Of a DNA stretch of 57,929 bases, positions 9,880-33,095 are shown one piece after another (within the stretch, counting starts at the first letter, position 1; each line of letters begins with the position of its first letter). The notes beneath the pieces are model-generated. The model saw only the letters and a program-made list of their open reading frames with translations, searched no databases and had not been told where the DNA came from. The stretch lies in the IMG/VR virus record IMGVR_UViG_2698536610_000002. One strand, given 5' to 3'. The translations under genes were made by a program, and so were the position numbers. The DNA is from a virus (lineage: Duplodnaviria; Heunggongvirae; Uroviricota; Caudoviricetes).

Positions 9880-10911
9880 ATGTCCTCGAATATTTTATCT
9901 GGTGAAAAAGTAATCAATAAAATTGCTGAAAAGTTGAGCGATTATAAATATCCTCCGGCTGAAGGTATGAACTCTGAACATGTCAGCAAATGGATTAAGC
10001 AATTTGCAGTGGAGGATAGACGATTTATCTTAGATGAAACGCTTTATCTACTTAATGCAGGTTACCTATCCGAAAGTCAATATCAACGAAAAATAAAAGC
10101 CATTGCAAGAAGTGAAAAGAACGCGAAATTCTTCAGATATGCAGGTTTTTTAGATATTCAAAAAAAAGGTTCTAGTCAGAAGGAATTGCTTAAATCTCTT
10201 TATGAAACAGTAGGGATCAAATTTAACATCGTTACTGAATCATCAACTCAAGATGAAGTAAATAAATTTGATACATTTGTATATATTGATGATGTGTCGT
10301 TTTCAGGAGAAAAGGCCATCAAATCGATAAGTAATTTTGTTTTAAAATTTAATTTAAGAGATATTAAATTCAATGTATATTTTTTTTCATCTCATACGTT
10401 ATCTGACTATAATATAAAAAGACGATTAGAATATATTTTTAAGGATAGAAACATTTTTGTACACGTGAAGAATGGTGGTATGCGTGAGGTTGAAAACCGA
10501 AAAAGTCGTTCTGCTCAATCAGGTGTTTTCTGGCCAAGGAAATATAGTGTAGATACTCCCGAGAAATTCGAGGAGTGTGAGCTTTACAAAGGCGTATTCA
10601 GAGATGGATATGCCTCTTCTGATAGTTTTAGAAATGAAGCCTCAAGGGATCGTTTCGAATCTATCCTTACTAAAGTCGGCTTTAATATCTTGCTGCACAG
10701 GAAAACCCCTAGTGAGGTGCTCAAACCTCTAGGTTTTTCTACTTTTGACGGTTTGGGTTTTGGGGGAACAACATTTACTTATCGAAATTGCCCGAATAAT
10801 GTGCCGCTGGCTTTTTGGTGGGGAGATTATGAACCAACAGGTGCTCCCGCATTGGACTGCTGGTATCCACTAATGAAGCGGAATGGGTATAATGAGTGGT
10901 ATGAGCTATAG
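9880..10911 (+). CDS. Uncharacterised 343-aa protein, upstream partner of a NADAR gene
   Basis: AT-rich ORF with SD aagga 7 nt upstream; internal FVYIDDVSFSGEKA weakly resembles a PRPP-binding (PRTase) loop; no confident family assignment. Confidence 0.8.
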   Translation: MSSNILSGEKVINKIAEKLSDYKYPPAEGMNSEHVSKWIKQFAVEDRRFILDETLYLLNAGYLSESQYQRKIKAIARSEKNAKFFRYAGFLDIQKKGSSQKELLKSLYETVGIKFNIVTESSTQDEVNKFDTFVYIDDVSFSGEKAIKSISNFVLKFNLRDIKFNVYFFSSHTLSDYNIKRRLEYIFKDRNIFVHVKNGGMREVENRKSRSAQSGVFWPRKYSVDTPEKFEECELYKGVFRDGYASSDSFRNEASRDRFESILTKVGFNILLHRKTPSEVLKPLGFSTFDGLGFGGTTFTYRNCPNNVPLAFWWGDYEPTGAPALDCWYPLMKRNGYNEWYEL

Positions 10912-13834: not shown

Positions 13835-14917
13835 TTAGAACTGGTAAACCATACCTACAGCAACGATATCATCGGTAGCAACGCCAGATGCTTTCGTGAA
13901 ATCGCTCTTATCAATCAGGTTGATTTTGTAATCAACAAAAGTGGACATATTTTTGTTGAAGTAATAGGTTGCACCTACATCAATATATTCAACCAGGTCC
14001 TGATCACCCCACGCACCCAAGTCTTTTCCTTTAGATTGCAGGTAAGCAACGGACGGACGCAGACCGAAGTCGAACTGATATTGTGCAACTACTTCGAAGT
14101 TTTGTGCTTTGTTGGCAATATGGTTATTACCAAAAACAGTCATGTTCTGGGTTTCAGAATAGGTGGTAGCCAGATAGATGTTGTTCGCATCATATTTCAG
14201 ACCAGCTGCCCATACTTCAGCATTTTGACCAGATGCATTCAGGCTGTTGTTACCGTAGATAACCTGATTATTAGTGCGGTCAGATTTAGCATAGGTTGCA
14301 CCTACACCGAATCCTTCATACTCATAAGTAGTGGAGAAACCGAAACCATCACCATTAGCTTCAGTTACGTCAGTGCGGTCATTTTTACCCTGATACTGAG
14401 CAGCAAAGTTCAGACCATCAACCAGACCAAAGAAGTCGTTGTTACGATAAGTTGCAACACCAGTGGTGCGACCAGTCATGAACACATCTGTTTGGGTCCA
14501 GGTATCGCCACCGAATTCTGGCAGAACGTCAGTCCACGCACCGATGTCATATGCTACACCGTAGTTACGGCCGTAATCGATTGAGCCGTAGTCCCCGAAT
14601 TTCAGGCCTGCAAATGCAAGACGGGTTTTGTCTTTGGAGGAGCCTTGAGATTCAGCGCGGTTGCCTTTGAATTCATATTCCCACTGACCGAAACCAGTCA
14701 GTTGATCGTTGATTTGGGTTTCACCTTTGAAGCCAAGACGGGCATAAGTAGTATCACCATCATCTGCATCATTAGAGGAGAAGTAGTGCTTGGCATTAAC
14801 TTTCCCATATAGATCCAGCTTGTTACTGTCTTTATTATAAATTTCAGCTGCCTGAGCAGACATCGCCATCAGTACTGATGCAGCTACAGCAGAAATTGCC
14901 ACTGTTAATTTTTTCAT
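13835..14917 (-). CDS. nmpC: Outer-membrane porin (NmpC/OmpD-like), intact
   Basis: Start at [23 protein letters not shown] signal peptide; C-terminal ...VAVGMVYQF ending in Phe typical of porins. Confidence 0.9.
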
Positions 14918-15504
14918 CGTGAGCCCTTTTTTTGAACTATTATTAAAAAATGATGTCACTGCGCGATAAATATTCATCTAATCAATGTGATTATTTCAAG
15001 ATGTAAGTTTTAGTTTCTCATTTAATTTGTGAAGTAGATCTCTATTTTTATCTGAACTTTTTCTATCGAAACCTATTTATGGCTCTTATTTGAACAAAAA
15101 TAAACCTATTAGCTAATTTATATTAATGGTTGTTATTTATGGAGGTTCTATAATTCGGCAGTTTAATTTAAATCAACTAAAAATAACGCCTGAAATTATT
15201 TATTGGTTATTTGTTGAGGTTTTCTTATGTATTTGTGGTGGTGTTTTGAACACTCGGTAGCATTCTCATAAATATCATTCAGTGGTTTACGTACGTAAAA
15301 AATTGGTTATGCTGTTAAGAGTGGTTACTTCGTCACACAGCTTAAACCCGCCGTCGAGCTGGTTTTTCCATTTTCTGAGTCTCGATATTAGCTGATAACT
15401 CAATACCTGAGTTATTCACTGACTCCGAGTCTGTTACGTTTCTGCTTTTTTGCGATACGTTGTATTCCCTCAATTTACACCCGCTTTGTCTGCGAGGTGG
15501 GGTT

Positions 15505-17560: not shown

Positions 17561-17759
17561 GAGGTTGCCCCGTATTCAGTGTCGCTGATTTGTATTGTCT
17601 GAAGTTGTTTTTACGTTAAGTTGATGCAGATCAATTAATACGATACCTGCGTCATAATTGATTATTTGACGTGGTTTGATGGCGTAGATGCACGTTGTGA
17701 CATGTAGATGATAATTATTATCATTTTGCGGGTCCTTTCCGGCGATCCGACAGGTTACG

Positions 17760-17771
17760 GGGCGGCGACCT
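17760..17771. other. cosN cohesive-end site of the prophage (gggcggcgacct) with flanking cosQ/cosB
   Basis: ...cgatccgacaggttacg gggcggcgacct cgcgggttttcgctatttatgaaaattttccggtttaagg... identical in layout to the lambda cos region; Nu1 starts 178 nt downstream. Confidence 0.9.
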
Positions 17772-17948
17772 CGCGGGTTTTCGCTATTTATGAAAATTTT
17801 CCGGTTTAAGGCGTTTCCGTTCTTCTTCGTCGTAACTTAATGTTTTTATTTAAAATACCCCCTAAAAAGAAAGGAAACGACAGGTGCTGAAAACGAACTT
17901 TTGGGCCTCTGTCGTTTCCTTTCTCTGTTTTTGGCCGTGGAATGAACA

Positions 17949-18468
17949 ATGGAAGTCAACAAAAAGCAGCTGGCTGACATTTTCGGTGCGAGTATCCGTA
18001 CCATTCAGAACTGGCAGGAACAGGGAATGCCCGTTCTGCGAGGCGGTGGCAAGGGTAATGAGGTGCTTTATGACTCTGCCGCCGTTATAAGATGGTATGC
18101 CGAAAGGGATGCTGAAATTGAGAACGAAAAGCTGCGCCGGGAAGTTGAAGAACTGCGGCGGGCCAGCGAGACAGATCTCCAGCCAGGGACTATTGAGTAC
18201 GAACGCCATCGACTTACGCGTGCGCAGGCCGACGCACAGGAGCTGAAAAATGCCAGAGACTCCGCTGAAGTGGTGGAAACCGCATTCTGTACTTTCGTGC
18301 TGTCGCGGATCGCAGGTGAAATTGCCAGTATTCTCGACGGGATCCCCCTGTCGGTGCAGCGGCGTTTTCCGGAACTGGAAAACCGACATGTTGATTTCCT
18401 GAAACGGGATATCATCAAAGCCATGAACAAAGCAGCCGCGCTGGATGAACTGATATCGGGGTTGCTGA

Positions 18469-18494
<26 letters not shown>
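17949..18494 (+). CDS. Nu1: Terminase small subunit Nu1
   Basis: 181 aa MEVNKKQLADIFGASIRTIQNWQEQGMPVLRGGGKGNEV... matches lambda Nu1. Confidence 0.95.
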
Positions 18495-21475
<2,981 letters not shown>

Positions 21476-21552
21476 AACCCTTGCTGCGTCTGGAATGTCG
21501 TTTTCCATGCTTTTGATGACCGTTCATCACCCTTCCAGTTTTTCGCGGTTTT

Positions 21553-21604
21553 GTGTATTGCAATGTGTATTGCAAATTGGCGATCGGGATGGGTGTGTAT
21601 TGCA
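21553..21604 (+). repeat. Three direct copies of gtgtattgca next to the left junction (candidate integrase arm-type sites)
   Basis: gtgtattgca at 21553-21562, 21565-21574, 21595-21604, just upstream of the island int start (21624). Confidence 0.5.
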
Positions 21605-21623
21605 AATCTCTTGAGGGCTTTTA

Positions 21624-22865
21624 ATGGCTATTGAAAACAAACTCAGTGACAAACTGTTAAAGAGTCTTGTCGGAAAACGGCAGGACAAACAAAAAACAAT
21701 AGCGGATGGGCGCGGGTTGTCTGTGCGTGTAAGCATGGTTGGGGGGATCAGCTTTGTTTTTTACTATCGTCTTGGTGGCAGGGAATCCCCTCCGGTATGG
21801 CTTACACTTGGTCGCTATCCTGACATGTCTCTTGCAACGGCCAGGCGCATGCGTGATCAGTGCCGTGAATGGCTAGCTGAAAATCTGGACCCCCGCAGGC
21901 AAATAAAACTTGCTGCCGAAAAAACTATGCAACCAGTGACCGTAAGGGATGCGCTGTTTTACTGGTACGACAATCACGCCACAACAGCCAGAAAAGAGCA
22001 TGAATATTTAATAAAACGATTTGAAAAGCATATCTTCCCCTATATCGGTGATATGGCTATAGAACAGTGCAAATTACACACATGGCTTACCGTCTTTGAC
22101 AGGATCAAAAAAAATGCGCCTGTTATGTCTGGTGCAATTTTTCTTGATATCAAACAGGCGTTGCGTTTTTGTCGCGTCAGGCAATACATCGCGTGCGATC
22201 CCTTTGGAGATATTAACGTAAGTTATGTCGGGCGCTCATCCGGTATAAGGGATCGCGTTCTTAATATCAATGAAACCGCTGATGTATGGTCTTATGCTTA
22301 CGGTAATAATTTGCTAACTCTGTCATCAATATATAACCGAAGAATAATGGTTATCTGCCTGGTGTTTGGTTGCCGACAGCAGGAGGCGAGGCTATCCACC
22401 TGGGACGAATGGGATTTAAAAAACTGGGTATGGACAGTCCCAAAAGAGCACAGCAAAAACAAGGAGGCTATAGTAAGGCCTGTTCCTGACGGAATAAAAC
22501 AATGGATCGTTAATCTTTACGCAGAAACAAAAAATCGCGGTTATGTTGTCGGTTGTGCTTTGCAAAGGGCGACAATAACAGGGGCTGCAAACAGAATATG
22601 CAGGCGTCTTGGTCATGATACTAATGGCTTGTGGTGCATACATGATTTCAGGCGCACATTTTCCACTACGCTTAATGATATGGGGGCGGATCCTTATATT
22701 GTCGAACTTCTTTTAGGTCATAAAGTGAAAGGGGTTGCTGGTGTTTACAATAAAAGCAGGCATATAAAGAAAAAACTTGAGGTGCTTAATATGTGGGTTA
22801 ATTACCTTAATACGATAGCAGGATTTAACAACAACGTTATCGAGCTTAATAAAGAGGTGGTGTGA
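21624..22865 (+). CDS. int: P4-type tyrosine integrase
   Basis: 413 aa; N-terminal arm-binding-like region GRGLSVRVSMVGGISFVFYYR; C-terminal HDFRRTF...LLGHK...GVYNKS catalytic motifs. Confidence 0.9.
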   Translation: MAIENKLSDKLLKSLVGKRQDKQKTIADGRGLSVRVSMVGGISFVFYYRLGGRESPPVWLTLGRYPDMSLATARRMRDQCREWLAENLDPRRQIKLAAEKTMQPVTVRDALFYWYDNHATTARKEHEYLIKRFEKHIFPYIGDMAIEQCKLHTWLTVFDRIKKNAPVMSGAIFLDIKQALRFCRVRQYIACDPFGDINVSYVGRSSGIRDRVLNINETADVWSYAYGNNLLTLSSIYNRRIMVICLVFGCRQQEARLSTWDEWDLKNWVWTVPKEHSKNKEAIVRPVPDGIKQWIVNLYAETKNRGYVVGCALQRATITGAANRICRRLGHDTNGLWCIHDFRRTFSTTLNDMGADPYIVELLLGHKVKGVAGVYNKSRHIKKKLEVLNMWVNYLNTIAGFNNNVIELNKEVV

Positions 22866-22866
22866 T

Positions 22867-23124
22867 ATGGCAATTTATTCTCTTGTTGATGAAAACGATT
22901 TGCGCACAATGAAGGACATTGATCGGTTCATTCGTGAAAAAGAGTGCATAGCACTTACCACGCTGGCAAACTCAACACGCTGGAAAATGGAGCAGGCAGG
23001 TAAATTCCCGCGACGTATCAAGATCGGTGAACGTGCTGCAGGGTATCGACTTTCAGAGGTTCAGGCATGGATCCGTGGTGAGTGGCATCCTGGATGGAAA
23101 CCTGGAAAAACAAAACAGCAATAA
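22867..23124 (+). CDS. alpA: AlpA-family transcriptional regulator/excisionase-like protein
   Basis: 85 aa; KFPRRIKIGERAAGYRLSEVQAWIRGEW pattern typical of AlpA. Confidence 0.7.
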   Translation: MAIYSLVDENDLRTMKDIDRFIREKECIALTTLANSTRWKMEQAGKFPRRIKIGERAAGYRLSEVQAWIRGEWHPGWKPGKTKQQ

Positions 23125-23180
23125 CCAGTAAATAATGCCCCTCATCACGAGGGGTTTTTTGTCTATAAGGTAAAAACGCG

Positions 23181-23759
23181 ATGAATAAAAATATTGCCGT
23201 GACGGGCAAGGGGTACGCTCGTCCAGTGAAAAAATTCTGCGATATTCGTGATCTCGTCGTTCTGCGCTTTGATAGTGTGAACGTTCGTGTGGTGTATCTG
23301 AACGGCGATCCGTGGTTTGTTGCAAAAGATGTTTGTGCTGCGCTGGAACTAACCAATTCGCGTACGGCGTTGCAGATGCTTGATGATGATGAAAAGGGAG
23401 TAAATTTAACTTACACCCCAGGAGGAAATCAGAATATGAGAATTATCTCTGAGTCAGGTTTCTACAAACTAATAGCCCGCAGCCGCAAAGCAACGACGCC
23501 TGGCACATTTGCTCATCGTTTCAGTAACTGGGTATTCAGAAATGTGATACCAGGTATCAGAAAAACGGGGACTTATGGTATCCCGTGGGGTGCATTACAG
23601 GATTTTTCCCGCCGTAAAGAGCAATATCAAATAAGTGCCAGCGAGAAGGGGAGGGAGCTACAGGCATGTAAGCGCAAAAAGCGTGAGCTGGAGGAAGAAG
23701 AAAAAACGCTGATACGTGAATATCAGCCTGAGTTTTACTTTGGTAACCGCATTCAGTGA
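23181..23759 (+). CDS. Bro-N domain protein (antirepressor-like)
   Basis: VRVVYLNGDPWFVAKDVCAALELTNSRTALQMLDDDEKG is a canonical Bro-N signature. Confidence 0.7.
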   Translation: MNKNIAVTGKGYARPVKKFCDIRDLVVLRFDSVNVRVVYLNGDPWFVAKDVCAALELTNSRTALQMLDDDEKGVNLTYTPGGNQNMRIISESGFYKLIARSRKATTPGTFAHRFSNWVFRNVIPGIRKTGTYGIPWGALQDFSRRKEQYQISASEKGRELQACKRKKRELEEEEKTLIREYQPEFYFGNRIQ

Positions 23760-24092
23760 CAAAACAAAGGCGACCGCAAAAGGGTCGCCAGTGGGAACAA
23801 GGGAAAACAAAAGCATCACCAACAATGCCACATTTGCGGCTGGTGGGCAATGTGATCAGTCAGATTTGGTTCGTTCCAAGGTTTGCAACGAGAGCTTTTT
23901 CCTGTGCTCTTTAAGGAATTTCTCAAGAGCAAACGAACAAGGTGCGAATCTTTCTGATTCATGTTCATGCGCTATATTTTTGCGTCGTCTCTTACGAGTT
24001 GGTGATGGTGTTTTGGTTGATTCTGTGTCGCTCATGGTGCTGTCCTGTAAAGCAATGCGCCTGCGTTCCTCAAACTATGGCGCTGATATTGG

Positions 24093-24398
24093 CTATTCAT
24101 GCTCTTTGACCTTGCGTCGCTGGAGTTCTTCACGCGCGACGGTGACGAGTTGCCCGATCTCCTCGGCTGCTTTGATGCCGATTTGTTCGACCTTAGCCAG
24201 GGCATCCAGTGACGACACAAGGGGATTTTCTCCGCTGCCTTCTGCTTGGCGGCGGGCTATTTCTCCGCGCATGGCGGTTACGATAAATCCGGCATTGCTT
24301 TCACCGTCCAGCTTAACGGATTCCATCCCTTGCATAACATCTAGTGGGACTCTGACAGTTGTCAGTTGTGATTTTGCGTTTTTGTTAGCCGTTGCCAT
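24093..24398 (-). CDS. Hypothetical protein divergent from the small-ORF operon (possible regulator)
   Basis: 101-aa ORF; start codon confirmed at 24396-24398; lies opposite a promoter/operator region. Confidence 0.45.
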   Translation of the reverse strand: MATANKNAKSQLTTVRVPLDVMQGMESVKLDGESNAGFIVTAMRGEIARRQAEGSGENPLVSSLDALAKVEQIGIKAAEEIGQLVTVAREELQRRKVKEHE

Positions 24399-24459
24399 TT
24401 CTGAAACTCCTAATCATCGGTGTGTTTCAGTATACACAAAAAAAGAAATACAAAAAGCC

Positions 24460-24497
24460 TTGACGTGTGTTTCATGCGCTCATAACATGAAACACAC
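24460..24497 (+). promoter_or_regulatory. Sigma70-like promoter overlapped by an inverted repeat (candidate operator)
   Basis: ttgacg (24460-24465), 17-nt spacer, taacat (24483-24488); inverted repeat gtgtgtttcatg ... catgaaacacac spans the -10 element. Confidence 0.5.
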
Positions 24498-24588
24498 CGA
24501 AAGGATTGTTGAAATACAAAGAGCAACGCCCCGCAGTGCTGGGAACACATACGGGGCGTCTAACCAACAACGTAAACTAGGAGCCGTT

Positions 24589-24786
24589 ATGGTTGCTGTA
24601 AATCATATACCACACCTTGTACACACACAAACGGCCTTTGTGTGGCGTTTTCTGGCACTGAGTGCCGGAGAATCTCAAATCATCCACGTAACCGCCTGGA
24701 CGGAACGCGAAGCGCGTAGCCGTTGCCCGTCCGGTTGTGTTGCTGTATTCGCTGCAAAAATCCGCCAGGGAGTGAGTCATGCTTAA
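24589..24786 (+). CDS. Small hypothetical protein (first gene of the island operon)
   Basis: 65-aa ORF with SD aggag 7 nt upstream; stop overlaps next ORF start. Confidence 0.45.
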   Translation: MVAVNHIPHLVHTQTAFVWRFLALSAGESQIIHVTAWTEREARSRCPSGCVAVFAAKIRQGVSHA

Positions 24787-24964
24787 AACCTTCCGTGTAT
24801 TTGCCCGAGCTGTTAACCCAATAGGCCACGCAATTGGTATCGCTCAGAATGTGAAGGCTGTTAATGTTCAGACGGCTATTGCTGCGGTGAGAAGCGAATC
24901 ATCAGAATATGGCTTATCACAAGTCATTATTTCAGCAGTGTATGAATTAAAAGAGGTGCATTAA
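24779..24964 (+). CDS. Small hypothetical protein
   Basis: 61-aa ORF; start/stop overlap neighbours (translationally coupled chain). Confidence 0.4.
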   Translation: MLKTFRVFARAVNPIGHAIGIAQNVKAVNVQTAIAAVRSESSEYGLSQVIISAVYELKEVH

Positions 24965-25155
24965 TGCAGGAAATTACATTACACGAAGCCGCTGAACGTG
25001 CGCACCAGACAGAAATTATTTGCCGCCTTCTTGAGGTATACCCGAACAAAATTACAGATGCTGATATATCCGCACTGGCGAGCCTACTGGCGCGTCTTTC
25101 GGGAAGTGTCGCTAGTTTTTTGATTGAGGAAGAAAGTAAGCTGGTGGGGGATTAA
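24964..25155 (+). CDS. Small hypothetical protein
   Basis: 63-aa ORF in the coupled chain. Confidence 0.4.
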   Translation: MQEITLHEAAERAHQTEIICRLLEVYPNKITDADISALASLLARLSGSVASFLIEEESKLVGD

Positions 25156-25377
25156 ATGAATACAGAACGGGAAGTCTTTTTTAAATTGTTAGCATGTGCA
25201 GAAAGTTCATTAACTTTAAATAATTCAGCAAAAGCAATATTAAATATGTGGCTTGATTGCATAAATGACAATGAAGATGCAAATATTGCTTATGGCCTGT
25301 TGTCACTTATTGATGAATCAGCAGAAAAACTCAATGACGCAATAAATAGTGCCCTGCTATCAAATAAGTCGAGTTAA
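25156..25377 (+). CDS. Small hypothetical protein
   Basis: 73-aa AT-rich ORF in the coupled chain. Confidence 0.4.
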   Translation: MNTEREVFFKLLACAESSLTLNNSAKAILNMWLDCINDNEDANIAYGLLSLIDESAEKLNDAINSALLSNKSS

Positions 25378-25394
25378 GTCGAGGAATAAATAAT

Positions 25395-25694
25395 ATGGAA
25401 ATGAAAAATTCTGGCTTTATTGCCAGCGGCCCCGCTCGAACTGAATTTATGAACGGCGATATTTACCGCGATAAATACGGCGGCACGGTAACGATTAAAG
25501 GCGTGGCAGAACGGCGCATCACTTACCGCCGTGAGGGGTATAGCTATGACTGCGTGATGCCTGTTTATCAGTTCCGGCGTGATTTTTCCCTGGTATATGC
25601 CACACCCCGCAGTAAGCCCATCAGCAGGGAAAAAGCGTGGGGAAATATCCAGAAAATGAAAACCATGATTAACGGATTCAGAGGTAAAAAATGA
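25395..25694 (+). CDS. Hypothetical protein
   Basis: 99-aa ORF; stop overlaps the primase start. Confidence 0.45.
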   Translation: MEMKNSGFIASGPARTEFMNGDIYRDKYGGTVTIKGVAERRITYRREGYSYDCVMPVYQFRRDFSLVYATPRSKPISREKAWGNIQKMKTMINGFRGKK

Positions 25695-27445
25695 AACTGG
25701 CACCGAACGTAAAACAGCAGTCACGCGGCATAAAACACAAAGGAACAGAAGTCATTATTTTTGCGGGTAGTGATGCCTGGGCACACGCGAAACAATGGCA
25801 GGAACATGATGCGCGTATGGCCGGAGATAATGAGCCTCCTGTGTGGCTTGGGGAGCAGCAGCTATCCGAACTGGATAATCTGCAAATTGTGCCGGAAGGC
25901 CGAAAATCAGCACGCATATACAGGGCCGGATATCTTGCGCCTGTAATGATAAAGGCGATTGGTCAGAAGCTGGCGGCAGCAGGCGTACAGGATGCAAATT
26001 TTTATCCTGAGGGTATGCACGGCCAGGAGGTGCAGAACTGGCGCGAATATCTGGCCCGTGAACGCCAGAATCTTTCTGATGGTCTGGTCATTGAGCTTCC
26101 GGTAAAGCAAAAGGCGCAACTTTCGCAGATGGCGGACAGTGAGCGCGCGCAGTTGCTTGCCGATCGCTTTGATGGCGTTTGCGTACATCCTGAAAGTGAA
26201 ATCGTTCACGTATGGCGCGGCGGGGTATGGTGTCCGGTCAGCACAATGGAACTTAGCCGCGAAATGGTGGCGATCTATTCAGAGCACAGGGCCACTTTCA
26301 GCAAGCGCGTAATCAATAACGCCGTGGAAGCGTTAAAAGTTATTGCCGAACCAATGGGCGAGCCGTCTGGCGATTTGCTGCCGTTCGCCAATGGTGCGCT
26401 TGACCTGAAAACGGGGGAATTTTCCCCGCACACGCCGGAGGACTGGATCACCACGCACAACGGCATTGAGTACACGCCACCAGCACCAGGGGAGAACATC
26501 CGCGATAACGCGCCAAACTTTCATAAATGGCTTGAGCACGCAGCCGGAAAAGACCCGCGCAAGATGATGCGTATATGTGCCGCGCTGTACATGATTATGG
26601 CGAACCGGTACGACTGGCAGATGTTTATTGAGGCCACCGGAGACGGCGGGAGCGGTAAAAGTACATTCACACACATAGCCAGCCTTCTGGCAGGGAAACA
26701 GAACACGGTAAGCGCTGAAATGACATCGCTTGATGATGCTGGTGGACGTGCGCAGGTTGTCGGGAGTCGTCTTATCGTCCTGGCTGACCAGCCGAAATAT
26801 ACAGGCGAAGGAACGGGCATCAAGAAAATCACAGGCGGCGACCCCGTGGAAATTAACCCGAAATATGAAAAGCGTTTCACGGCGGTAATCAGGGCGGTGG
26901 TGCTGGCGACCAACAACAACCCGATGATATTCACCGAACGGGCCGGAGGTGTGGCACGTCGTCGCGTGATTTTCCGTTTCGACAATATCGTCAGTGAGGC
27001 CGAAAAAGACAGGGAGCTACCGGAAAAGATTGCGGCTGAAATCCCCGTTATTATCCGCCGATTGCTGGCGAACTTTACCGACCCTGAGAAGGCACGGGCT
27101 TTACTACTGGAACAGCGTGACGGTGATGAAGCACTGGCAATAAAGCAACAGACGGATCCGGTTATTGAGTTTTGCCAGTTCCTGAATTTTCTGGAGGAAG
27201 CGCGCGGCCTGATGATGGGTGGCGGTGGTGATTCAGTGAAGTACACGACCAGGAACAGCCTTTACCGCGTCTATCTGGCGTTTATGGCATACGCGGGCAG
27301 GAGCAAACCGCTAAACGTGGCTGAGTTCAGCAAGGCCATGAAGCCAGCGGCGAAAGTTTACGGGCATGAATATATTACGCGAAAAGTTAAGGGAGTAACG
27401 CAGACCAACGCAATTACAACAGACGATTGCGACGCGTTTTTATAA
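25691..27445 (+). CDS. P4-alpha-like primase-helicase (D5/P4-family C-terminal NTPase)
   Basis: 584 aa; Walker A TGDGGSGKST and Walker B-like RLIVLAD; size and position typical of satellite replication proteins. Confidence 0.85.
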   Translation: MKLAPNVKQQSRGIKHKGTEVIIFAGSDAWAHAKQWQEHDARMAGDNEPPVWLGEQQLSELDNLQIVPEGRKSARIYRAGYLAPVMIKAIGQKLAAAGVQDANFYPEGMHGQEVQNWREYLARERQNLSDGLVIELPVKQKAQLSQMADSERAQLLADRFDGVCVHPESEIVHVWRGGVWCPVSTMELSREMVAIYSEHRATFSKRVINNAVEALKVIAEPMGEPSGDLLPFANGALDLKTGEFSPHTPEDWITTHNGIEYTPPAPGENIRDNAPNFHKWLEHAAGKDPRKMMRICAALYMIMANRYDWQMFIEATGDGGSGKSTFTHIASLLAGKQNTVSAEMTSLDDAGGRAQVVGSRLIVLADQPKYTGEGTGIKKITGGDPVEINPKYEKRFTAVIRAVVLATNNNPMIFTERAGGVARRRVIFRFDNIVSEAEKDRELPEKIAAEIPVIIRRLLANFTDPEKARALLLEQRDGDEALAIKQQTDPVIEFCQFLNFLEEARGLMMGGGGDSVKYTTRNSLYRVYLAFMAYAGRSKPLNVAEFSKAMKPAAKVYGHEYITRKVKGVTQTNAITTDDCDAFL

Positions 27446-27454
27446 TTTTTTGTA

Positions 27455-27700
27455 AAAGCCATCTACCCCATCTACCTGAACAAAATAAACTCATATTATT
27501 CAACATGATAAGTGGGTATAGGGCTAGGTAGAAGGCTAATAAAAGCTCTCTACCTCTTCTACCTGATTTTATCAGTTTCAGGTAGCAGGGTAGACGGCAG
27601 GTAGAGGAGTCAAAAAGCTATCTACCCGCTGAAAGCCGCGCCATTACTGACATGATGAGCATTCGGGTAGATGGGTAGAGGGGGGGAGGCACAACTAAAA
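27455..27700. repeat. Iteron cluster (repeated ctacc/ggtag-containing motifs) downstream of the primase: candidate island ori
   Basis: catctaccccatctacctg, gctaggtagaagg, ctctacctcttctacctg, caggtagcagggtagacggcaggtagagg, ctatctacccg, cgggtagatgggtagaggg. Confidence 0.6.
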
Positions 27701-27731
27701 ACTTTTTAAACGAGGGGGGGGGTGAAAATAA

Positions 27732-28046
27732 ATGCGCATACATAAAAATCACTTAACAAACATGCCAGCCGAAAACATGAATCAGGGGCGACAAATGACC
27801 AAAATTCGCAGAGACAGAACACAGGCAAAATATAAAGCGTTAGACATGACAGAGCTTTCCTTAAAGGTGGCAATCAAAGCGATAGACCACCACACACGGG
27901 CAGGATACGCGAAGGAACATCCCGACCTGATAAGCGCATTCATGACCACAGCAGCGGCAAACTTTGCCACGCTGACAGAACGGGAGATTGCCGAAGCGGA
28001 ACAGGTGACAACCATCAATGTTAAAACCGGAGAGCAGACAGCATGA
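27732..28046 (+). CDS. Hypothetical protein
   Basis: 104-aa ORF preceded by a G9 homopolymer (27714-27722). Confidence 0.4.
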   Translation: MRIHKNHLTNMPAENMNQGRQMTKIRRDRTQAKYKALDMTELSLKVAIKAIDHHTRAGYAKEHPDLISAFMTTAAANFATLTEREIAEAEQVTTINVKTGEQTA

Positions 28047-28465
28047 CAGCACAGATAGCGGCTTACGGGCGGCTGGTGGCTGACCCGCAGTTAAAGACCA
28101 CCAGCAAAGGGACACAAATGGCGATGGCGAGTATGGCGGTTCCCCTGCCGTGCAGCCAGGCAGATGACGGAACGGCGACGATGTGGTTATCCGTCCTGGC
28201 GTTTGGCAGACAGGCCGACGCACTGGCAAAACACCACAAAGGCGAACTGGTGAGCGTGGCGGGTAACATGCAGGTAAGCCAGTGGACAGGCCAGAACGGC
28301 GAAACGCGGCGGGGCTGGCAGGTTATCGCAGACAGCGTAATCAGTGCGCGAACGGCGCGACCGGGCGGCAAAAAAGGCCAGCAGGGGCAGGCCACTGACG
28401 CACTGAACAGGGCAAAACAACAGTCGGGGAATGATGATCCGTACGGCGATAATATACCGTTTTAA
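28043..28465 (+). CDS. SSB-like single-stranded DNA-binding protein
   Basis: 140 aa; Gly/Gln-rich tail ending in the acidic DDPYGDNIPF motif characteristic of SSB C-termini. Confidence 0.55.
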   Translation: MTAQIAAYGRLVADPQLKTTSKGTQMAMASMAVPLPCSQADDGTATMWLSVLAFGRQADALAKHHKGELVSVAGNMQVSQWTGQNGETRRGWQVIADSVISARTARPGGKKGQQGQATDALNRAKQQSGNDDPYGDNIPF

Positions 28466-28676
28466 ATTCTACAAACAAAAAGATGCCGGAAAAAAATAGA
28501 TTTTCCGGCATGCTACATAAATCCCGACCAAAGGAAGTAAATACATTAACACGAATTATCAGCACTGAAGTTGTTACGGCATATTTTATACAACATTGCA
28601 CTTGGTTGCATGTATTCGCATAGCAGACATCGGTAATAGAATATATTCACAATTATTTGTAATGAATGTAAAGAGG

Positions 28677-29723
28677 ATGAGTATGGTTGATTTATATTCG
28701 CCTACACAGCTTGTGCAGGTGGCTAATGCTGAAGATGTGCAAAAAAAATTAAATGCGTTGTTTACCAGTTTGTTTTTCACTCGCTCGGTAATGTTTGAAT
28801 CGAGAGACATTATTCTTGATACGATCGACGATCCAAATATCCCGATCGCGGCGTTTTGCTCTCCTATGGTGGGCAGTAAAGTTTCACGAGATGAGGGATA
28901 CGAATCAAAAACAATTCGTCCAGGTTATATGAAGCCGAAAAGCAGCATTGATCCAAATAAGTTAGCTGTGCGCCCTGCTGGTGTGTCACCTGAGCAATAC
29001 AATGCTTTTGGGGCGCGTAATATTAAAGTTAAACAGGCGATTGTAAATCAGGCTAAAGCTATTCGTGCACGTATTGAATGGCTTGCTGTTCAGGCAATCA
29101 CAACGGGGAAAAATATCATTGAGGGCGATGGTATTGAACGTTATGAGCTGGACTGGAATATAAAACCACAAAATATCATCACTCAGTCTGGCGGTACTGA
29201 GTGGTCAGGTAAGGATAAAGAAACTTTTGATCCAAATGATGATATTGAGAGCTACGCAGAATTTAGTGAGGGCGTCACTAATATCATCATTATGGGTGGT
29301 AATGTATGGAAGAAATACCGTTCATTCAGAGCGATAAAAGAGGCTTTGGATACCCGTCGTGGTTCTAATTCCGAACTGGAAACGGCCCTTAAAGACCTTG
29401 GTGATTCGGTGAGTTTTAAAGGGTATATGGGCGATGTTGCGATTGTTGTTTACAGCGGGCGTTATACCGACGAGGACGGAACAGAAAAACATTTCCTTGA
29501 TCCTGATTTGATGGTGCTTGGCAATACGGCTCTTCAGGGGATTGTCGCCTATGGCGGTATTCAGGATCCGGAGCTAATCCGAATGGGGCTGACTAAAGCC
29601 GAACTTGCACCGAAAAACTATATTGTGCCTGGTGATCCGGCTATTGAATATGTGCAGACACATTCAGCACCACAGCCAATACCGGCCCGCATCAATCGTT
29701 TTGTTACCGTTCGCATTGGCTAA
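28677..29723 (+). CDS. Major capsid protein E homologue (island copy)
   Basis: Starts MSM like lambda gpE; blocks ITQSGGTEWS, LDTRRGSNSELETALKDLG and YMGDVAIVVYSG align with the helper gpE at 34793-35818. Confidence 0.8.
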   Translation: MSMVDLYSPTQLVQVANAEDVQKKLNALFTSLFFTRSVMFESRDIILDTIDDPNIPIAAFCSPMVGSKVSRDEGYESKTIRPGYMKPKSSIDPNKLAVRPAGVSPEQYNAFGARNIKVKQAIVNQAKAIRARIEWLAVQAITTGKNIIEGDGIERYELDWNIKPQNIITQSGGTEWSGKDKETFDPNDDIESYAEFSEGVTNIIIMGGNVWKKYRSFRAIKEALDTRRGSNSELETALKDLGDSVSFKGYMGDVAIVVYSGRYTDEDGTEKHFLDPDLMVLGNTALQGIVAYGGIQDPELIRMGLTKAELAPKNYIVPGDPAIEYVQTHSAPQPIPARINRFVTVRIG

Positions 29724-29732
29724 GGGGGAGCA

Positions 29733-30074
29733 ATGCCTACTCATTACACTGAACTCATGGCTGGCACTGAAGCACTGGTGACTACGCTGGGGATATTTTC
29801 AGCTAATAAAGGGGTAATTCCTGCATTTACGCCACTGATGCAGGAAGATGCAACAGGTGCACTGGTGGTATGGGATGGTTCGAGCGTAGGTAAAGCGGTT
29901 TATGTTTCCGCTGTACAAATCGACACAGCGAAAAAAACACAGGCACAGGTTTATAAGACAGGTGTTTTAAATGTTGATGCTCTGAACTGGCCTGAGTCTG
30001 TAAAAGAACTGTCGGCAAAGGTTGCCGCGTTTGTTGGCTCAGGTATTTCTGTTCAGCCGCTGGCTCGTGTGTAA
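29733..30074 (+). CDS. Head decoration protein D homologue (island copy)
   Basis: 113 aa; FTPLMQEDATGALVVWDGSSVGKAVYVSAV and AAFVGSGISV align with lambda gpD ([30 protein letters not shown] ... AFAGTAISI). Confidence 0.8.
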   Translation: MPTHYTELMAGTEALVTTLGIFSANKGVIPAFTPLMQEDATGALVVWDGSSVGKAVYVSAVQIDTAKKTQAQVYKTGVLNVDALNWPESVKELSAKVAAFVGSGISVQPLARV

Positions 30075-30085
30075 AGGGGGATACA

Positions 30086-30469
30086 ATGCAGAATCATTAC
30101 AATGACCTTAAGCCAATTGCCGAAATGATGTATCCGGATCCAGCAGTAGAGGAATTAAAGGCTATTGCTGACAAAATGCGTTTAAGTGAACGCCTTGTTG
30201 ATATGAATCAGGTGATGGAACTTACTACCCTTAGCCGTCGCACATTGCTAAACCTTGAGGCTCGCGGAGAGTTCCCCGAACGCGTACAGGTTACGGAAGG
30301 GCGTAAGGCCTGGTATTTAAGTGAAGTGATCGACTGGATAAACAATATTCCTCGATCTTCTGAATATTGCCGCGTATCTGTCCCAAAAAAGCCAGATGCG
30401 GCGCTATGCCTCAAGATTGAGCGTGTACGTCGCAATGCACGGGATGGTCGCTATAAGTTGATTGGTTGA
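30086..30469 (+). CDS. HTH protein (AlpA/MerR-like) upstream of the island cos
   Basis: 127 aa; LTTLSRRTLLNLEARGEFPERVQV...WYLSEVIDWINN resembles an AlpA-type HTH. Confidence 0.45.
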   Translation: MQNHYNDLKPIAEMMYPDPAVEELKAIADKMRLSERLVDMNQVMELTTLSRRTLLNLEARGEFPERVQVTEGRKAWYLSEVIDWINNIPRSSEYCRVSVPKKPDAALCLKIERVRRNARDGRYKLIG

Positions 30470-30525
30470 TGAAATTAGGGCCCGTTCTGGCTGGCGGGTC
30501 CTTTCCGGCGATCCGGTAGGCTACG

Positions 30526-30537
30526 GGGCGGCGACCT
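30526..30537. other. Second cosN (gggcggcgacct) belonging to the island
   Basis: gggtcctttccggcgatccggtaggctacg gggcggcgacct cgcgggttttcgctatttatga: near-identical to the helper cos for ~75 nt, then diverges in the cosB region. Confidence 0.8.
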
Positions 30538-30685
30538 CGCGGGTTTTCGCTATTTATGAGCCTTTTTCGGGTGCTGGTGGTGGTTTTGTTGTTCGCTCTA
30601 TCTCTATGAATAAAAAGGAAAAGATAAAGCCAATACACCAACCTGAAACATTACTTAAGTGGGGATATTGATGAAATCGCACCTG

Positions 30686-31213
30686 ATGAACAAAAAAAAC
30701 ATGGCGCAAAGCTGCCGTGTAAGTGCGACAGCGTTCGACAAGTGGGGAGTGACTCCCGTTGAACGTAAAGGCCGCGAGGCGTTTTATGATGTTGCCAGCG
30801 TAATAGACAATCGGGTTAGCAATGCAATTAACCAGATTACAGACGACAAAGGCGAGATTGATGATGATGAACTCCTACGAGTCAGGATCAGATTGCTGAC
30901 AGCACAGGCAGAGGCGCAGGAGCTTAAAAACGAGCGCGAACGCGGCGACGTTATTGATACAGCGTTTTGTATATACGTGCTTTCAAAATTGGCGAGTCAG
31001 ATTTCTTCAATCATGGACAGCCTGCCGCTTGCCATGACAAGGAAGTTTCCCGACATGAAGCCGTCTATGCTGGATGGACTGAAAAAAGAAGTTATCAGAG
31101 CCTGTAACGCATGCGCAAAACTTGACGAAAACATACCGCTGATGCTGTCCGATTATCTGATGGAAACTGCCGGAAACGTACCGGATAAGTTGCAGCCGAA
31201 TAAAGATAAGTAA
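30686..31213 (+). CDS. Nu1-like small terminase subunit (island copy, divergent N-terminal DNA-binding domain)
   Basis: Start set at MNKKNMAQ (Nu1 MEVNKKQLA); C-terminal ELKNERERGDVIDTAFCIYVLSKLASQISSIMDSLPLAMTRKFP aligns with Nu1 ELKNARDSAEVVETAFCTFVLSRIAGEIASILDGIPLSVQRRFP. Confidence 0.8.
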   Translation: MNKKNMAQSCRVSATAFDKWGVTPVERKGREAFYDVASVIDNRVSNAINQITDDKGEIDDDELLRVRIRLLTAQAEAQELKNERERGDVIDTAFCIYVLSKLASQISSIMDSLPLAMTRKFPDMKPSMLDGLKKEVIRACNACAKLDENIPLMLSDYLMETAGNVPDKLQPNKDK

Positions 31214-31224
31214 CGTAGTACGCT

Positions 31225-31506
31225 ATGACTGAATCCGAAATACTGCGATTAATCCGCCGTGCTTGTGGAATCAGCAAGCAGCATGACGAACAGGCCACGC
31301 AGCCGGACAGCGTGACCGCAGATAATTATGTGCGTGTAGTGGCTGAGGTGATGCGCCGTGACGGTATTGAGCTTAACGGCGTGGATATGCGCAACATACG
31401 AACAAGAGTCCTTGAGTTGCTGGCATATCGTCGCCGTTCTCAACAACGGAGGGAGAGCGCGAAAAATACTTACCAGTGGAAGAAGCCGGAACGATTGCGG
31501 CGGTAA
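31225..31506 (+). CDS. Hypothetical protein
   Basis: 93-aa ORF, Arg-rich C-terminus. Confidence 0.4.
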   Translation: MTESEILRLIRRACGISKQHDEQATQPDSVTADNYVRVVAEVMRRDGIELNGVDMRNIRTRVLELLAYRRRSQQRRESAKNTYQWKKPERLRR

Positions 31507-31521
31507 CTTGCTGATATTCCC

Positions 31522-31879
31522 GATAACGCAAAATTGCGCTGGCTGACTTGTTGCATTGCAAAAAGTTAAGCAGGAAGGCACGGCCTGTAAGATGGGATGC
31601 AGTAAGTAGTTCAAGGCTACCTTGTGCTGGCACGCACAGTTAAGCCGTCGGTGCTGGATATCCCCCACTGGGGGAAAAGCTGGCTACATCCCTCACATCT
31701 GAGGACTGATAACGCGACATTGCGCTGGCTGGCAAAGTGCAAAATTGCACGATGGCCTAACCCATTGATTATTTCGAAAACCTGCAATGCAGGAAATCGG
31801 GGAAGTAAGCCTAAGCTATTAATTGTTTCGAAAACCCCCATTGGGGGATGTCGGGAAAGTAAGACTAACCCATTGATTC
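31522..31879. repeat. Non-coding array of repeated hairpin-containing modules
   Basis: gataacgc(a/g)a(a/c)attgcgctggctg twice (31522, 31708); tandem ~55-bp units tt(a/g)tttcgaaaacc[hairpin]g(a/g)tcggg(g/a)aagtaag(c/a)ctaa at 31770 and 31825; cccattgatt flanks at 31761 and 31870. Confidence 0.55.
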
Positions 31880-32220
31880 TTCCACAATCCTCAATTTGAG
31901 GAGGCCGGAACGTCTACATAGCTGCATCGCCGTAATGATGATTCAGCCCACCAGCCAAATCAGCACAGCAACGACAGAATAGCCCGACACAGAAAAACCA
32001 CGAATATGGGGTTTTTGTTATGACATGGTCATGATGACCACTCATACAAAACAGGTAAAGCCCACCAGCCTGATTAAAGGTTAACCGGAAAAAAGCCAGG
32101 TATCCAATCTCGATATGGGGATCCCTATATCGACATTAACGCCCACTAAAACTGTGCATATATGCATAGAAAAAGCATCCACCAGCTTTATGACGGATGC
32201 CGCTCATCTTATAAATAATC

Positions 32221-32242
32221 GTGTATTGCAGTGTGTATTGCG
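32221..32242 (+). repeat. Two copies of gtgtattgc(a/g) next to the right junction
   Basis: gtgtattgca 32221-32230 and gtgtattgcg 32233-32242, same motif as at the left end. Confidence 0.5.
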
Positions 32243-32321
32243 ACTCCTTTAAACGATAGGTCTGAGCATTCGTAATGTACTGTTTTTAAATTTTATTTTT
32301 TCCTGTCTTTTCATAAAGGCG

Positions 32322-33095
32322 ATGTATGCCGCCACCATTGAGAGTGAGCTGGATACGCAGTCAGCGATGGATTTTATTCTGGGCGCGAACAGTCAGGAGC
32401 AGCGGGAAAGGCTGACCGGCTGGATTGGTGAAATTGCCGCGTATTACGCCGCAGCACCGGTCCGTCTGGGAGGCGCAAAAGTGCCGCACCTGATGCCGGG
32501 GGACTCACTGAACCTGCAGACGGCTCAGGACACGGATAACGGCTACTCCGTGTTTGAGCAGTCACTGTTGCGGTATATCGCTGCCGGGCTGGGTGTCTCG
32601 TATGAGCAGCTTTCCCGGAATTACGCCCAGATGAGCTACTCCACGGCACGGGCCAGTGCGAACGAGTCGTGGGCGTACTTTATGGGGCGGCGAAAATTCG
32701 TCGCATCCCGTCAGGCGAGCCAGATGTTTCTGTGCTGGCTGGAAGAGGCCATCGCTCGCCGCGTGGTGACGTTACCTTCAAAAGCGCGCTTCAGTTTTCA
32801 GGAAGCCCGAAGTGCCTGGGGGAACTGCGACTGGATAGGCTCCGGTCGTATGGCCATCGATGGTCTGAAAGAAGTACAGGAAGCGGTGATGCTGATAGAA
32901 GCCGGACTGAGTACCTACGAGAAAGAGTGCGCAAAACGCGGTGACGACTATCAGGAAATTTTTGCCCAGCAGGTCCGTGAAACGATGGAGCGCCGTGCAG
33001 CCGGTCTTAAACCGCCCGCCTGGGCGGCTGCGGCATTTGAATCCGGACTGCGACAATCAACAGAGGAGGAGAAGAGTGACAGCAGAGCTGCGTAA
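32322..33095 (+). pseudogene. B: Portal protein B, C-terminal 257 codons, separated from the N-terminal part by the island
   Basis: MYAATIESELDTQSAMDFILGANSQEQRERLTGW... continues lambda gpB exactly from the residue after ...SAIVKA. Confidence 0.85.

Follow-up and report, generated by a model that had tools for sequence, protein, structure and literature searches.

The viral record IMGVR_UViG_2698536610_000002, a stretch of 57,929 nucleotides that is called the window below, contains a lambdoid prophage with a second mobile element inside its portal gene. Judged by its sequence, this element (21429-32315) is a phage-inducible chromosomal island (PICI) of the EcCICFT073 family, co-oriented with the portal gene of the lambda-type prophage that carries it. 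The present work concerns the packaging module of the island, i.e. a cos site at 30496-30559 and the gene for a small terminase (TerS) at 30671..31213 (+ strand), which starts 110 bp downstream of the cos core. The only large terminase (TerL) gene in the window is that of the prophage, gpA (18469-20394). The island terS has no TerL gene of its own after it; what follows is an open reading frame (ORF) for a 93-residue protein and then the island end.

A second cos site in the window

There are only two occurrences of the lambda cohesive-end sequence GGGCGGCGACCT in the window, which start at 17760 and 30526 and are both on the + strand. The first copy belongs to the helper cos core (17730..17793, + strand), with cosQ GGGTCCT at 17730-17736 and GGGCGGCGACCT at 17760-17771, and the second to the island cos core (30496..30559, + strand), with cosQ GGGTCCT at 30496-30502 and GGGCGGCGACCT at 30526-30537; in both, the proximal segment ends in TTTATGA. 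A gapless comparison of the two cores gives 61 identical bases out of 64, from cosQ through cosN to ...CGCTATTTATGA, including a 37-bp exact block that is present only at these two sites of the window. Upstream of the core the identity is at the background level of 26-28%, and downstream it is 56% over the next 50 bp, followed by 30% and 16%. The duplication of the core is real, sharp-edged and far above chance. An earlier note on this DNA, made from the letters alone, had stated that the cos sequence occurs in both the prophage and the island and that the copies diverge downstream in cosB. Both statements hold, with the similarity reaching background within ca 100 bp.

The divergence starts where cosB starts in lambda, after TTTATGA. 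The helper core continues into a lambda-type cosB with R-like sequences (CGTTTCCGTTCT; GGAAACGACAG / CTGTCGTTTCC) that extends to ca 17945. In the island, as is characteristic of Gram-negative PICIs of the EcCICFT073 type, cosQ and cosN are helper-like whereas cosB is not that of the helper. The site lies between the small gene 3′ of the decoration gene and the packaging gene, which matches the position of cos1 in EcCICFT073.

The spacer between cosQ and cosN in the island (30496-30525) matches that of the host prophage (17730-17759) at 27 of 30 positions, compared with 19-24 of 30 between the other islands of the family and the helper (hand count). This suggests exchange between island and helper.

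The small terminase of the island

The island TerS has 180 residues and consists of a winged helix-turn-helix (HTH) domain like that of phage N15 gp1, a Nu1-like central helix and a divergent C-terminal tail with a 13-residue extension. Its counterpart in the prophage is Nu1, a lambda-type protein of 181 residues (17949..18494, + strand; Pfam Phage_Nu1 335 bits over residues 1-164), a homologous gene of which is annotated in E. coli L26 as nohD DNA-packaging protein. The two proteins align over their full length with 37% identity (BLASTP, E 2e-35). The island TerS scores 85.8 bits against Pfam PF07471 Phage_Nu1 (cut-off 30), with only residues 66-148 aligning to the model, and it matches PHROG 57 'terminase small subunit' over residues 1-176 with E 5e-51. 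The gene after the island cos had been called a Nu1 homologue in the earlier note, and these results bear that out; the pairwise alignment proposed there shows homology along the entire protein and not a poor match.

The segments of the protein are conserved to different degrees. Relative to helper Nu1, the N-terminal domain (residues 1-47) has an identity of 39-41%, the linker 0% with a deletion of ca 16 residues, the central helix (69-125) 51%, and the tail, which aligns with Nu1 141-181, 38%. On the alignment, the best-conserved part is therefore the central oligomerisation helix and not the TerL-binding tail, so that the conservation earlier attributed to the whole C-terminal half applies to the helix but not to the tail. 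The claim that the N-terminal DNA-binding part is different also needs qualification. The recognition helix does differ, but the comparison points to a homologous winged HTH with a shortened wing rather than to an unrelated fold, as the domain aligns with both Nu1 and N15 gp1 with the conserved pattern NKK..A...W..P..R.G.E..YD.

In the AlphaFold2 model of the island TerS, the N-terminus is arranged as strand-helix-helix-hairpin-helix (E5-7, H8-14, H21-25, E31-33, E36-40, H41-58). A profile made from island sequences only matches residues 1-98 of lambda TerS (6HN7_B) with E 7e-4; the first profile search (A4) had contained lambda-like rows, and the match was repeated with the island-only profile. 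A single-sequence search of the PDB with the island TerS returned nothing relevant, so that lambda TerS was matched by profile searches only.

Between the island TerS and Nu1 the synonymous divergence (pS) is 0.73, and the ratio of nonsynonymous to synonymous substitution (dN/dS) is ca 0.25. The synonymous sites are near saturation, so that a recent origin of the island terS from the helper gene is excluded. A recent duplication of the helper packaging region was considered and is rejected on these grounds, and because the similarity does not extend beyond the cos core. This also answers the objection, raised in the earlier note itself, that the island cos might simply be part of a duplicated helper segment including helper Nu1. 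The island TerS is under purifying selection, with a dN/dS of 0.20 for the protein as a whole and of 0.07 for the DNA-binding domain, the latter between the window and the related island L009. More than 100 protein clusters and 763 complete genomes contain an intact ORF.

Kinship with phage N15

The closest phage relative of the island TerS is N15 gp1, with 47.6% identity over 91% of the protein. In the N-terminal domain the identity is 61% to N15 but 39% to helper Nu1, the wing is short as in N15, and the island has ATAFDKWG as its recognition helix, compared with VQAFDKWG in N15 and IRTIQNWQ in lambda. The likeness comprises the AFDKWGV recognition helix, the short wing, the lambda-like cosQ and cosN and G(G/T)T triplets at ca bp 48-68, which in the island are a candidate R3. 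The left end of N15 reads ...TATATATGAAAAATTTGGACATGAGGTTGTTGTTTAA, and its single critical TerS site is R3 = GAGGTTGTTGTT at bp 48-59 (PMC4669245). In the island, bp 48-59 read GCTGGTGGTGGT and bp 63-68 read GTTGTT. N15 and the island thus have related arrays of G(G/T)T triplets at this place, that of the island being a putative R3. They differ in that the island has (GGT)3 where N15 has (GTT)3, with the island GTTGTT 9 bp further out. The proteins differ beyond the DNA-binding domain, as the central helix and tail of N15 gp1 are 77-79% lambda-like, compared with 51% and 38% in the island. Finally, N15, as a complete phage, itself encodes a TerL, whereas the island has none.

The consequences of such a combination are known from experiments on lambda/N15 hybrids. 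A chromosome with cosQ and cosN of lambda and cosB of N15 is packaged with values of 5e-4 when the helper is lambda-specific, 2e-4 when it is 21-specific and 2.5 when it is N15-specific, the latter helper being a lambda-N15 hybrid in which lambda TerL is anchored by an N15-derived TerS (PMC4669245). An N15-type cosB is not used by the terminases of lambda and 21, and the N15-specific terminase handles lambda DNA at about half efficiency (PMC4669245). By analogy, the island can be viewed as the natural counterpart of this construct of Feiss et al. (2015), in that the subsites read by TerL are as in the helper, and a different specificity class is represented by the subsite for TerS together with the TerS domain that recognises it. 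To judge from the sequences, this N15-like specificity is not unique to the island but belongs to the N15 family.

The small terminases of helper prophages are themselves mosaics (L024 107-739, L026 503-1015, L033 6381-6893). That of L024 has an N15-type N-terminus with the recognition helix VQAFDKWG, the same as in N15 gp1, and is possibly the 'Monarch' type of Feiss. In L026 and L033 an unrelated HTH N-terminus is joined to a nearly identical C-terminal half.

The candidate TerS site in the island cosB

Counted from the cohesive end, the island cosB reads GCTGGTGGTGGTTTTGTTGTT at bp 48-68. Within it, GGTGGTGGTTTTGTTGTT at bp 51-68 (30576..30593, + strand) is a candidate R3-like element, located where lambda and N15 have R3. 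Four island lineages (the window, L010-13, L002-5 and L014-15) share the 12-mer GGTGGTGGT(T/G)TT at bp 51-62, followed by GTTGTT. Their TerS proteins are 54-79% identical overall to that of the window and 66-96% in the N-terminal domain, and the flanking DNA has diverged. The assignment as R3 is based on this conservation and on the analogy with N15, and binding of TerS to the element is predicted.

A weaker candidate, distal and inverted, lies at 30631..30647 (− strand; top strand CAATACACCAACCTGAA), where the bottom strand CAGGTTGGTGTA equals N15 R3 at 9 of 12 positions. It is kept in the window, L009-13 and L014-15 and absent from L002-5; it has three mismatches and sits just upstream of the ribosome-binding site of terS. 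No second inverted R element or N15-like copy of rR2 was found within 700 bp at up to two mismatches.

Two further observations concern this region. The length of the (GGT)n array differs between the nearly identical islands L009 and L010-L013, which alters the distance between cosN and the TTTTGTTGTT downstream. At 30573-30580 the window has an exact Chi sequence, GCTGGTGG, which lies within the candidate R3 element and on the strand that carries the cohesive-end sequence; it also occurs in L014/L015, is absent from L002-5 and L009-13, and may be a by-product of the (GGT)n array.

Variation within the TerS family

Among the island TerS proteins the DNA-binding domain is the most conserved segment (66-98%), which fits a conserved DNA target, and the tail is the most variable (29-83%). 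Between the window and L009, pS is 0.21 in the N-terminus and 0.75 in the tail, an unevenness that indicates recombination. Three variants (P0139, P0140 and P0142) combine an island-type N-terminus with a lambda/N15-like central helix (74-79%) and tail (50-64%). Taken together, the variable tail, the uneven pS and the mosaic variants are what one would expect if tails were swapped in step with the TerL types of the helpers.

It should be kept in mind how the identity of 38% between the tails of the island TerS and helper Nu1 is to be read. The last ca 42 residues of lambda Nu1 are the TerL-binding region, and different specificities of TerL binding have been reported for lambda and phage 21 (PMC9026076). 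The tails of lambda-type and 21-like TerS are 31% identical, so that 38% is comparable to the identity between types of reportedly different TerL specificity, and preserved TerL binding cannot be read from it.

A homologue search with a mixed profile returned mostly the island family again and did not expose the diversity of phage Nu1. One lambda-type Nu1 from E. coli (P0133, 211 residues) has a 30-residue internal tandem duplication of the central helix, with SAEVVETAFCTFVLSRIAGEIASILDGIPL repeated.

Relation to EcCICFT073 and rppA

EcCICFT073, known together with the Rpp system from Fillol-Salom (2018, 2019) and Murialdo and Feiss (2022), was located in the CFT073 genome, and its gene order is the same as that of the window island: integrase, alpA, Icd-like, DUF4222, primase, SSB, capsid, decoration, small gene, cos, packaging gene and 93-residue gene are common to both. 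In both, cosQ and cosN are lambda-like, cosB is different, and cos lies directly upstream of the packaging gene. In EcCICFT073, cos1 occupies the equivalent intergenic position and is followed by a gene of 144 codons whose product matches the RppC crystal structure at 111 bits, which identifies it as rppA.

The differences lie in the packaging gene and the cos sites. Rpp proteins have 144-153 residues, while the window island encodes a full-length Nu1/N15-type TerS of 180 residues with a C-terminal tail. EcCICFT073 has an inverted cos2, whereas the window island has a single cos and no cos2, and the (GGT)3 cores of the two are opposite in orientation. The island TerS gave no BLASTP alignment to RppA and no PDB match to RppC, and the possibility that it is itself an Rpp is rejected for lack of detectable similarity to either. 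The N-terminus of RppA resembles that of lambda-type Nu1 (E 1e-6). Unlike EcCICFT073, the window island is predicted not to need the TerS of the helper.

The two kinds of gene are nevertheless found at one locus. A TerS of 79% identity (P0075, 659 contigs) occurs in islands at the phoQ att site with the layout of EcCICFT073, exactly at the place of rppA, whose role as a packaging redirector is proven, and this makes terS and rpp alternative cassettes. In a survey of 5426 complete E. coli genomes, the cos+terS module was found in 763 (at least 80% coverage) and the cos1+rppA module in 97, with the restriction that the latter query would overlook RppC-type genes; the terS module is thus about eight times as frequent as the rppA type.

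Some observations on the cos sites of these relatives can be added. In cos1 of EcCICFT073 (L008 32558-32630), ACCACCACC stands at bp 55-63, i.e. the GGTGGTGGTG core at the same distance from cosN as 30576-30587 of the window, on the opposite strand. A second, inverted cos with a helper-type cosB is located 3′ of the packaging gene in some islands (L008 33308 on the minus strand, L033 6189, L009-L013 at ca 9728, L032 20685). The cosB of EcCICFT073 cos2 (GGGATCCATGTCCGGTTTCTCTGCAAGTTAAC) is that of the L033 prophage, and cos2 of L032 is similar to the cosB of the 21-like CFT073 prophage 4. In L009-13, cos1 and cos2 have an identical cosQ-cosN spacer, which suggests gene conversion.

Proposed mechanism and alternatives

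The best explanation of these findings, to which we assign a probability of roughly 0.6, is that a hybrid cos and an N15-type TerS of its own enable the island to steer the helper gpA onto satellite DNA and into helper capsids. Excision of the island, which would also mend the portal gene of the helper, and subsequent replication would give concatemers with a cos every 10.9 kb. The N15-like domain of TerS would bind the GGT/GTT element, and the Nu1-like remainder, i.e. the central helix and the tail, would bring in the helper gpA, which would then nick the island cosN and package the concatemers into helper capsids. According to this mechanism, cosQ and cosN, which are read by the large terminase for cutting and termination, would have been kept helper-like, while cosB would have been swapped for an N15-related R3-like element. 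Four units of 10.9 kb amount to 43.6 kb and would fill a head of lambda size; this length is within the packaging limits of the lambda head.

The presumed motor and nuclease hijacked by the island is the helper gpA, a lambda-type large terminase of 641 residues (18469..20394, + strand), taken from the ORF list, annotated as terminase large subunit and 86.5% identical to N15 gp2. Redirection of packaging by the island is well supported by the sequence comparisons, whereas binding of the island TerS to the helper gpA is predicted from them. The specificity logic of the scheme is carried over from the published lambda/N15 genetics.

A number of points weigh against this interpretation, and its weak link is the recruitment of TerL. 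The last ca 42 residues of the island TerS, which correspond to the TerL-binding region in lambda, are only 38% identical to helper Nu1 and 33% to the second helper type (hand count). Moreover, a 100%-identical island TerS is also found in prophages of another TerS/TerL type, in which TerL is 65% identical, and 54% over the first 50 residues. In a search with the C-terminus only, no phage in the collection came closer than 42-48%, and this search, together with the helper/island pairs from IMG/VR, leans against a tight match between the tail and the TerL of the helper. The earlier note had proposed that the island recruits the helper large terminase through its own TerS to its own cosB. As a description of redirected packaging this is still the best reading, but the recruitment of helper TerL cannot be upheld in the form given there, in view of the tail and of the identical TerS beside divergent TerL.

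Other points concern the DNA-binding side. The recognition helix of the island differs from that of N15 at two of eight positions, so that it does not have the identity of N15 and Monarch, and the GTTGTT core is at bp 63-68 and not at 54-59. In addition, L009 has lost two GGT units, with a 6-bp shift of the element (L009 8862 compared with L010-L013 8856), and the spacing between cosN and R3 is reported to be critical in lambda (PMC9026076), so that this polymorphism counts against the proposal. The structure prediction suggested by the earlier note does return a winged-HTH topology, but the model is of modest quality (predicted local distance difference test, pLDDT, 68), and a Foldseek search with it gave only MerR-like winged-HTH matches, none of them significant (E ≥ 0.12). 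Finally, a literature search that mostly did not extend to subscription-journal papers, such as the 2015 Virology paper on N15 cosB, found no experiment on any TerS-type PICI of Gram-negative bacteria.

An alternative is that the island TerS acts in the manner of Rpp, co-assembling with helper Nu1 via the central helix or the N-terminal domain, so that the mixed complex reads the island cosB, Nu1 contacts gpA and packaging of the helper is poisoned. One TerS could then serve helpers with different TerL, and the poorly conserved TerL-binding tail (38%) would be accounted for, as would the fact that conservation with Nu1 is highest in the central oligomerisation segment (51%, and 74-79% in P0139, P0140 and P0142). 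The terS gene also sits at the rppA locus, the Rpp-type cos1 has the GGTGGTGGTG core inverted at bp 52-63, and a heterocomplex of Rpp and TerS is already established (PMC6739421, PMC9026076). We nevertheless consider this rather unlikely. No similarity of the island TerS to either RppA or RppC was detected, and unlike Rpp the island protein possesses a full-length tail that aligns with the TerL-binding region of Nu1 and is exchanged among variants. Furthermore, Rpp contacts the DNA-binding domain of TerS, which here is N15-like and not lambda-like.

A quite different option is that the TerS homologue merely titrates or misdirects the helper terminase and thereby blocks the helper, the island cos being packaged inefficiently by unmodified helper terminase. 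Satellites often disturb the packaging of their helpers, and plasmids with the EcCICFT073 cos are moved by lambda without Rpp at reduced efficiency (PMC6092414, PMC6739421). However, the lambda terminase essentially cannot use an N15-type cosB, and since lambda DNA is packaged at about half efficiency by the terminase specific for N15, an N15-like domain would be a poor blocker (PMC4669245). The joint conservation of the DNA-binding domain and the R3-like element across lineages also argues for a specific protein-DNA partnership, and interference of this kind thus appears improbable. That the module is an inert relic, i.e. a duplicated or decaying piece of the prophage packaging region that has no present function, is effectively refuted. 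The island cos core is indeed nearly the same as that of the neighbouring prophage, and lambda-like cos cores occur in ca 86% of E. coli genomes, but the similarity ends with the core, the synonymous sites relative to Nu1 are near saturation at a low dN/dS, the ORF is intact throughout the clusters and genomes mentioned above, and the synteny is fixed across E. coli, Citrobacter and Enterobacter.

The island and the surrounding prophage

The island has a length of 10,900 bp and lies on the + strand throughout, except for one small ORF of the YlcI/YnfO family. According to annotation and synteny with EcCICFT073, it has the PICI backbone, namely a size of ca 10-15 kb and a unidirectional int-alpA-primase order, with tail and lysis genes absent. 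It contains an integrase, an AlpA-like regulator, BRO-N, Icd-like and DUF4222 genes, a P4-type primase, SSB, capsid-E and decoration genes, an AlpA-like HTH gene, cos, TerS and the 93-residue protein. The order int-alpA-primase-capsid-decoration-cos-terS is the one that is fixed across the three genera.

The tyrosine integrase of 413 residues is encoded at 21624..22865 (+ strand; ORF list and annotation). The homologues of the Phage_cap_E major capsid protein and of the HDPD head-decoration protein (28683..30074, + strand) are syntenic with c1499/c1500 of EcCICFT073 (PMC6092414). Directly 5′ of the island cos is the gene for an AlpA-like HTH protein of 127 residues (30086..30469, + strand; Pfam Phage_AlpA E 1.3e-8; PHROG 2790 excisionase/transcriptional regulator). 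Next after the packaging gene comes that for the 93-residue conserved protein of unassigned function (31225..31506, + strand; PHROG 1561, E 1e-55); a gene of the same size and position is also found in EcCICFT073 and L009-13, and it occurs in TerS-type as well as Rpp-type islands.

The alignment of an intact portal gene covers 20669-21428 and continues from 32316. At the break point in portal gene B lies the attL core AAGGCGATTTATG (21416..21428, + strand), and the portal frame picks up again at the attR core AAGGCGATGTATG (32316..32328, + strand), so that each junction has a copy of the 13-bp core AAGGCGAT(T/G)TATG. When the halves of the gene are joined at this core, the portal reading frame is restored, ...SAIVKAIYAATIESELD... 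Close to both island ends there are doubled GTGTATTGCA motifs (ca 21560-21600 and ca 32215-32240). The identical portal-gene insertion is found in 52 complete E. coli genomes and in many prophage contigs of IMG/VR, where all relatives of the integrase adjoin a split portal gene. Relatives whose TerS is 60% identical are inserted in the capsid gene E of other enterobacterial prophages (L002-L005), and another relative adjoins rpoD-dnaG in Enterobacter hormaechei.

The surrounding lambdoid prophage has a lambda-type integrase (1-1143, minus strand), a CI-like repressor, the O replication protein, RusA, a porin and lysozyme. Its late region comprises cos, Nu1, gpA, W, portal, protease, D, E and tail genes, followed by a McrBC-like pair at the right end. 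This pair (AAA_5 ATPase and McrC, 52438-55535) and a PRTase-CE domain protein in the early region (9880-10908) are likely defence cargo of the prophage. A Gram-negative porin gene (OmpC-like, 510 bits; 13838-14977, minus strand) stands between the Q region and the lysis genes, and a CFT073 prophage (L006) has a porin at the equivalent place.

Comparison with other satellites and significance

That a satellite TerS can redirect the helper TerL is no new principle, as it is established for the pac-type Staphylococcus aureus pathogenicity islands (SaPIs). There too, a TerS homologous to that of the helper is encoded by the satellite, forms a pair with the helper TerL and recognises a satellite site. 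The SaPIs differ in using headful pac packaging, in being Gram-positive elements and in blocking the phage TerS by a separate protein, Ppi. The island is cos-based and shares the TerL-read subsites with its helper, and no Ppi-like gene is present among its annotated genes.

The island also belongs with the helper-embedded satellites, 491 of which were mapped by Tommasini, Mageeney and Williams in cognates of the lambda late genes A, B, C, E, V, T, H, L and J (bioRxiv 10.1101/2022.07.18.500453): it splits the portal gene at 21428/32316, has the 13-bp core and the doubled end motif, and restores the frame when the halves are joined. One such satellite, 11capE, lacks terS and shares a 258-bp cos (90% identical) with its helper (bioRxiv 10.1101/2022.07.18.500453), whereas the window island has just the 64-bp core in common with its helper, its TerS and cosB being its own. 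Capsid-related genes and TerS are likewise found in the capsid-forming PICIs (cf-PICIs), but these also have genes for TerL, portal, protease and connectors, and what they obtain from the helper is limited to tails. Assignment of the island to the cf-PICIs is rejected, as 21429-32315 holds just capsid and decoration homologues and TerS, with no TerL, portal, protease or head-tail connectors.

Among the core components listed for PICIs is the small terminase, 'responsible for redirecting the packaging' (PMC10085698), and the presence of terS homologues in Gram-negative PICIs was pointed out in 2018 (PMC6092414). Reviews of piracy strategies cover the helper's own cos, the SaPI TerS, Rpp and the cf-PICIs, and the island TerS/cosB module is absent from them. 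Within the scope of the literature search given above, nothing was found on a Nu1/N15-type TerS in a cos-type PICI, on its cosB, or on its allelic relation to rpp. The strategy is thus known, and the variant is common and catalogued; what is new here are the N15-type DNA-binding domain, the conserved GGTGGTGGTTTTGTTGTT element of cosB and the tie to the published lambda/N15 genetics.

We put forward, tentatively and as a possibility that falls short of even odds, a more general picture. The N15-like TerS with a GGT/GTT cosB would be the main packaging-hijack system of enterobacterial PICIs and helper-embedded satellites, independent of the helper TerS and set apart from lambda- and 21-type helpers by an orthogonal packaging specificity of three to four orders of magnitude. 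Tail swaps would follow the helper TerLs, and Rpp would be an alternative at the same locus that reads the (GGT)3 core reversed.

To our knowledge, Rpp is the sole packaging mechanism that has been worked out for E. coli PICIs, and yet the terS module is far commoner than the rppA type in complete E. coli genomes (763 against 97). E. coli PICIs carry virulence and defence genes between cells at high frequency. The present analysis joins two separate literatures, that on PICI piracy and that of the Feiss laboratory on the lambda/21/N15 specificity genetics, and the link to N15 turns an annotation into specific and cheap experiments. The predictions that follow are that transfer would proceed without helper Nu1, that it would depend on 30576-30593, and that the helper range would be set by tail swaps. 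The island family would thus offer a natural system for studying how one TerS tail handles divergent TerL N-termini, and may provide a design rule for engineered cos-packaged delivery vehicles.

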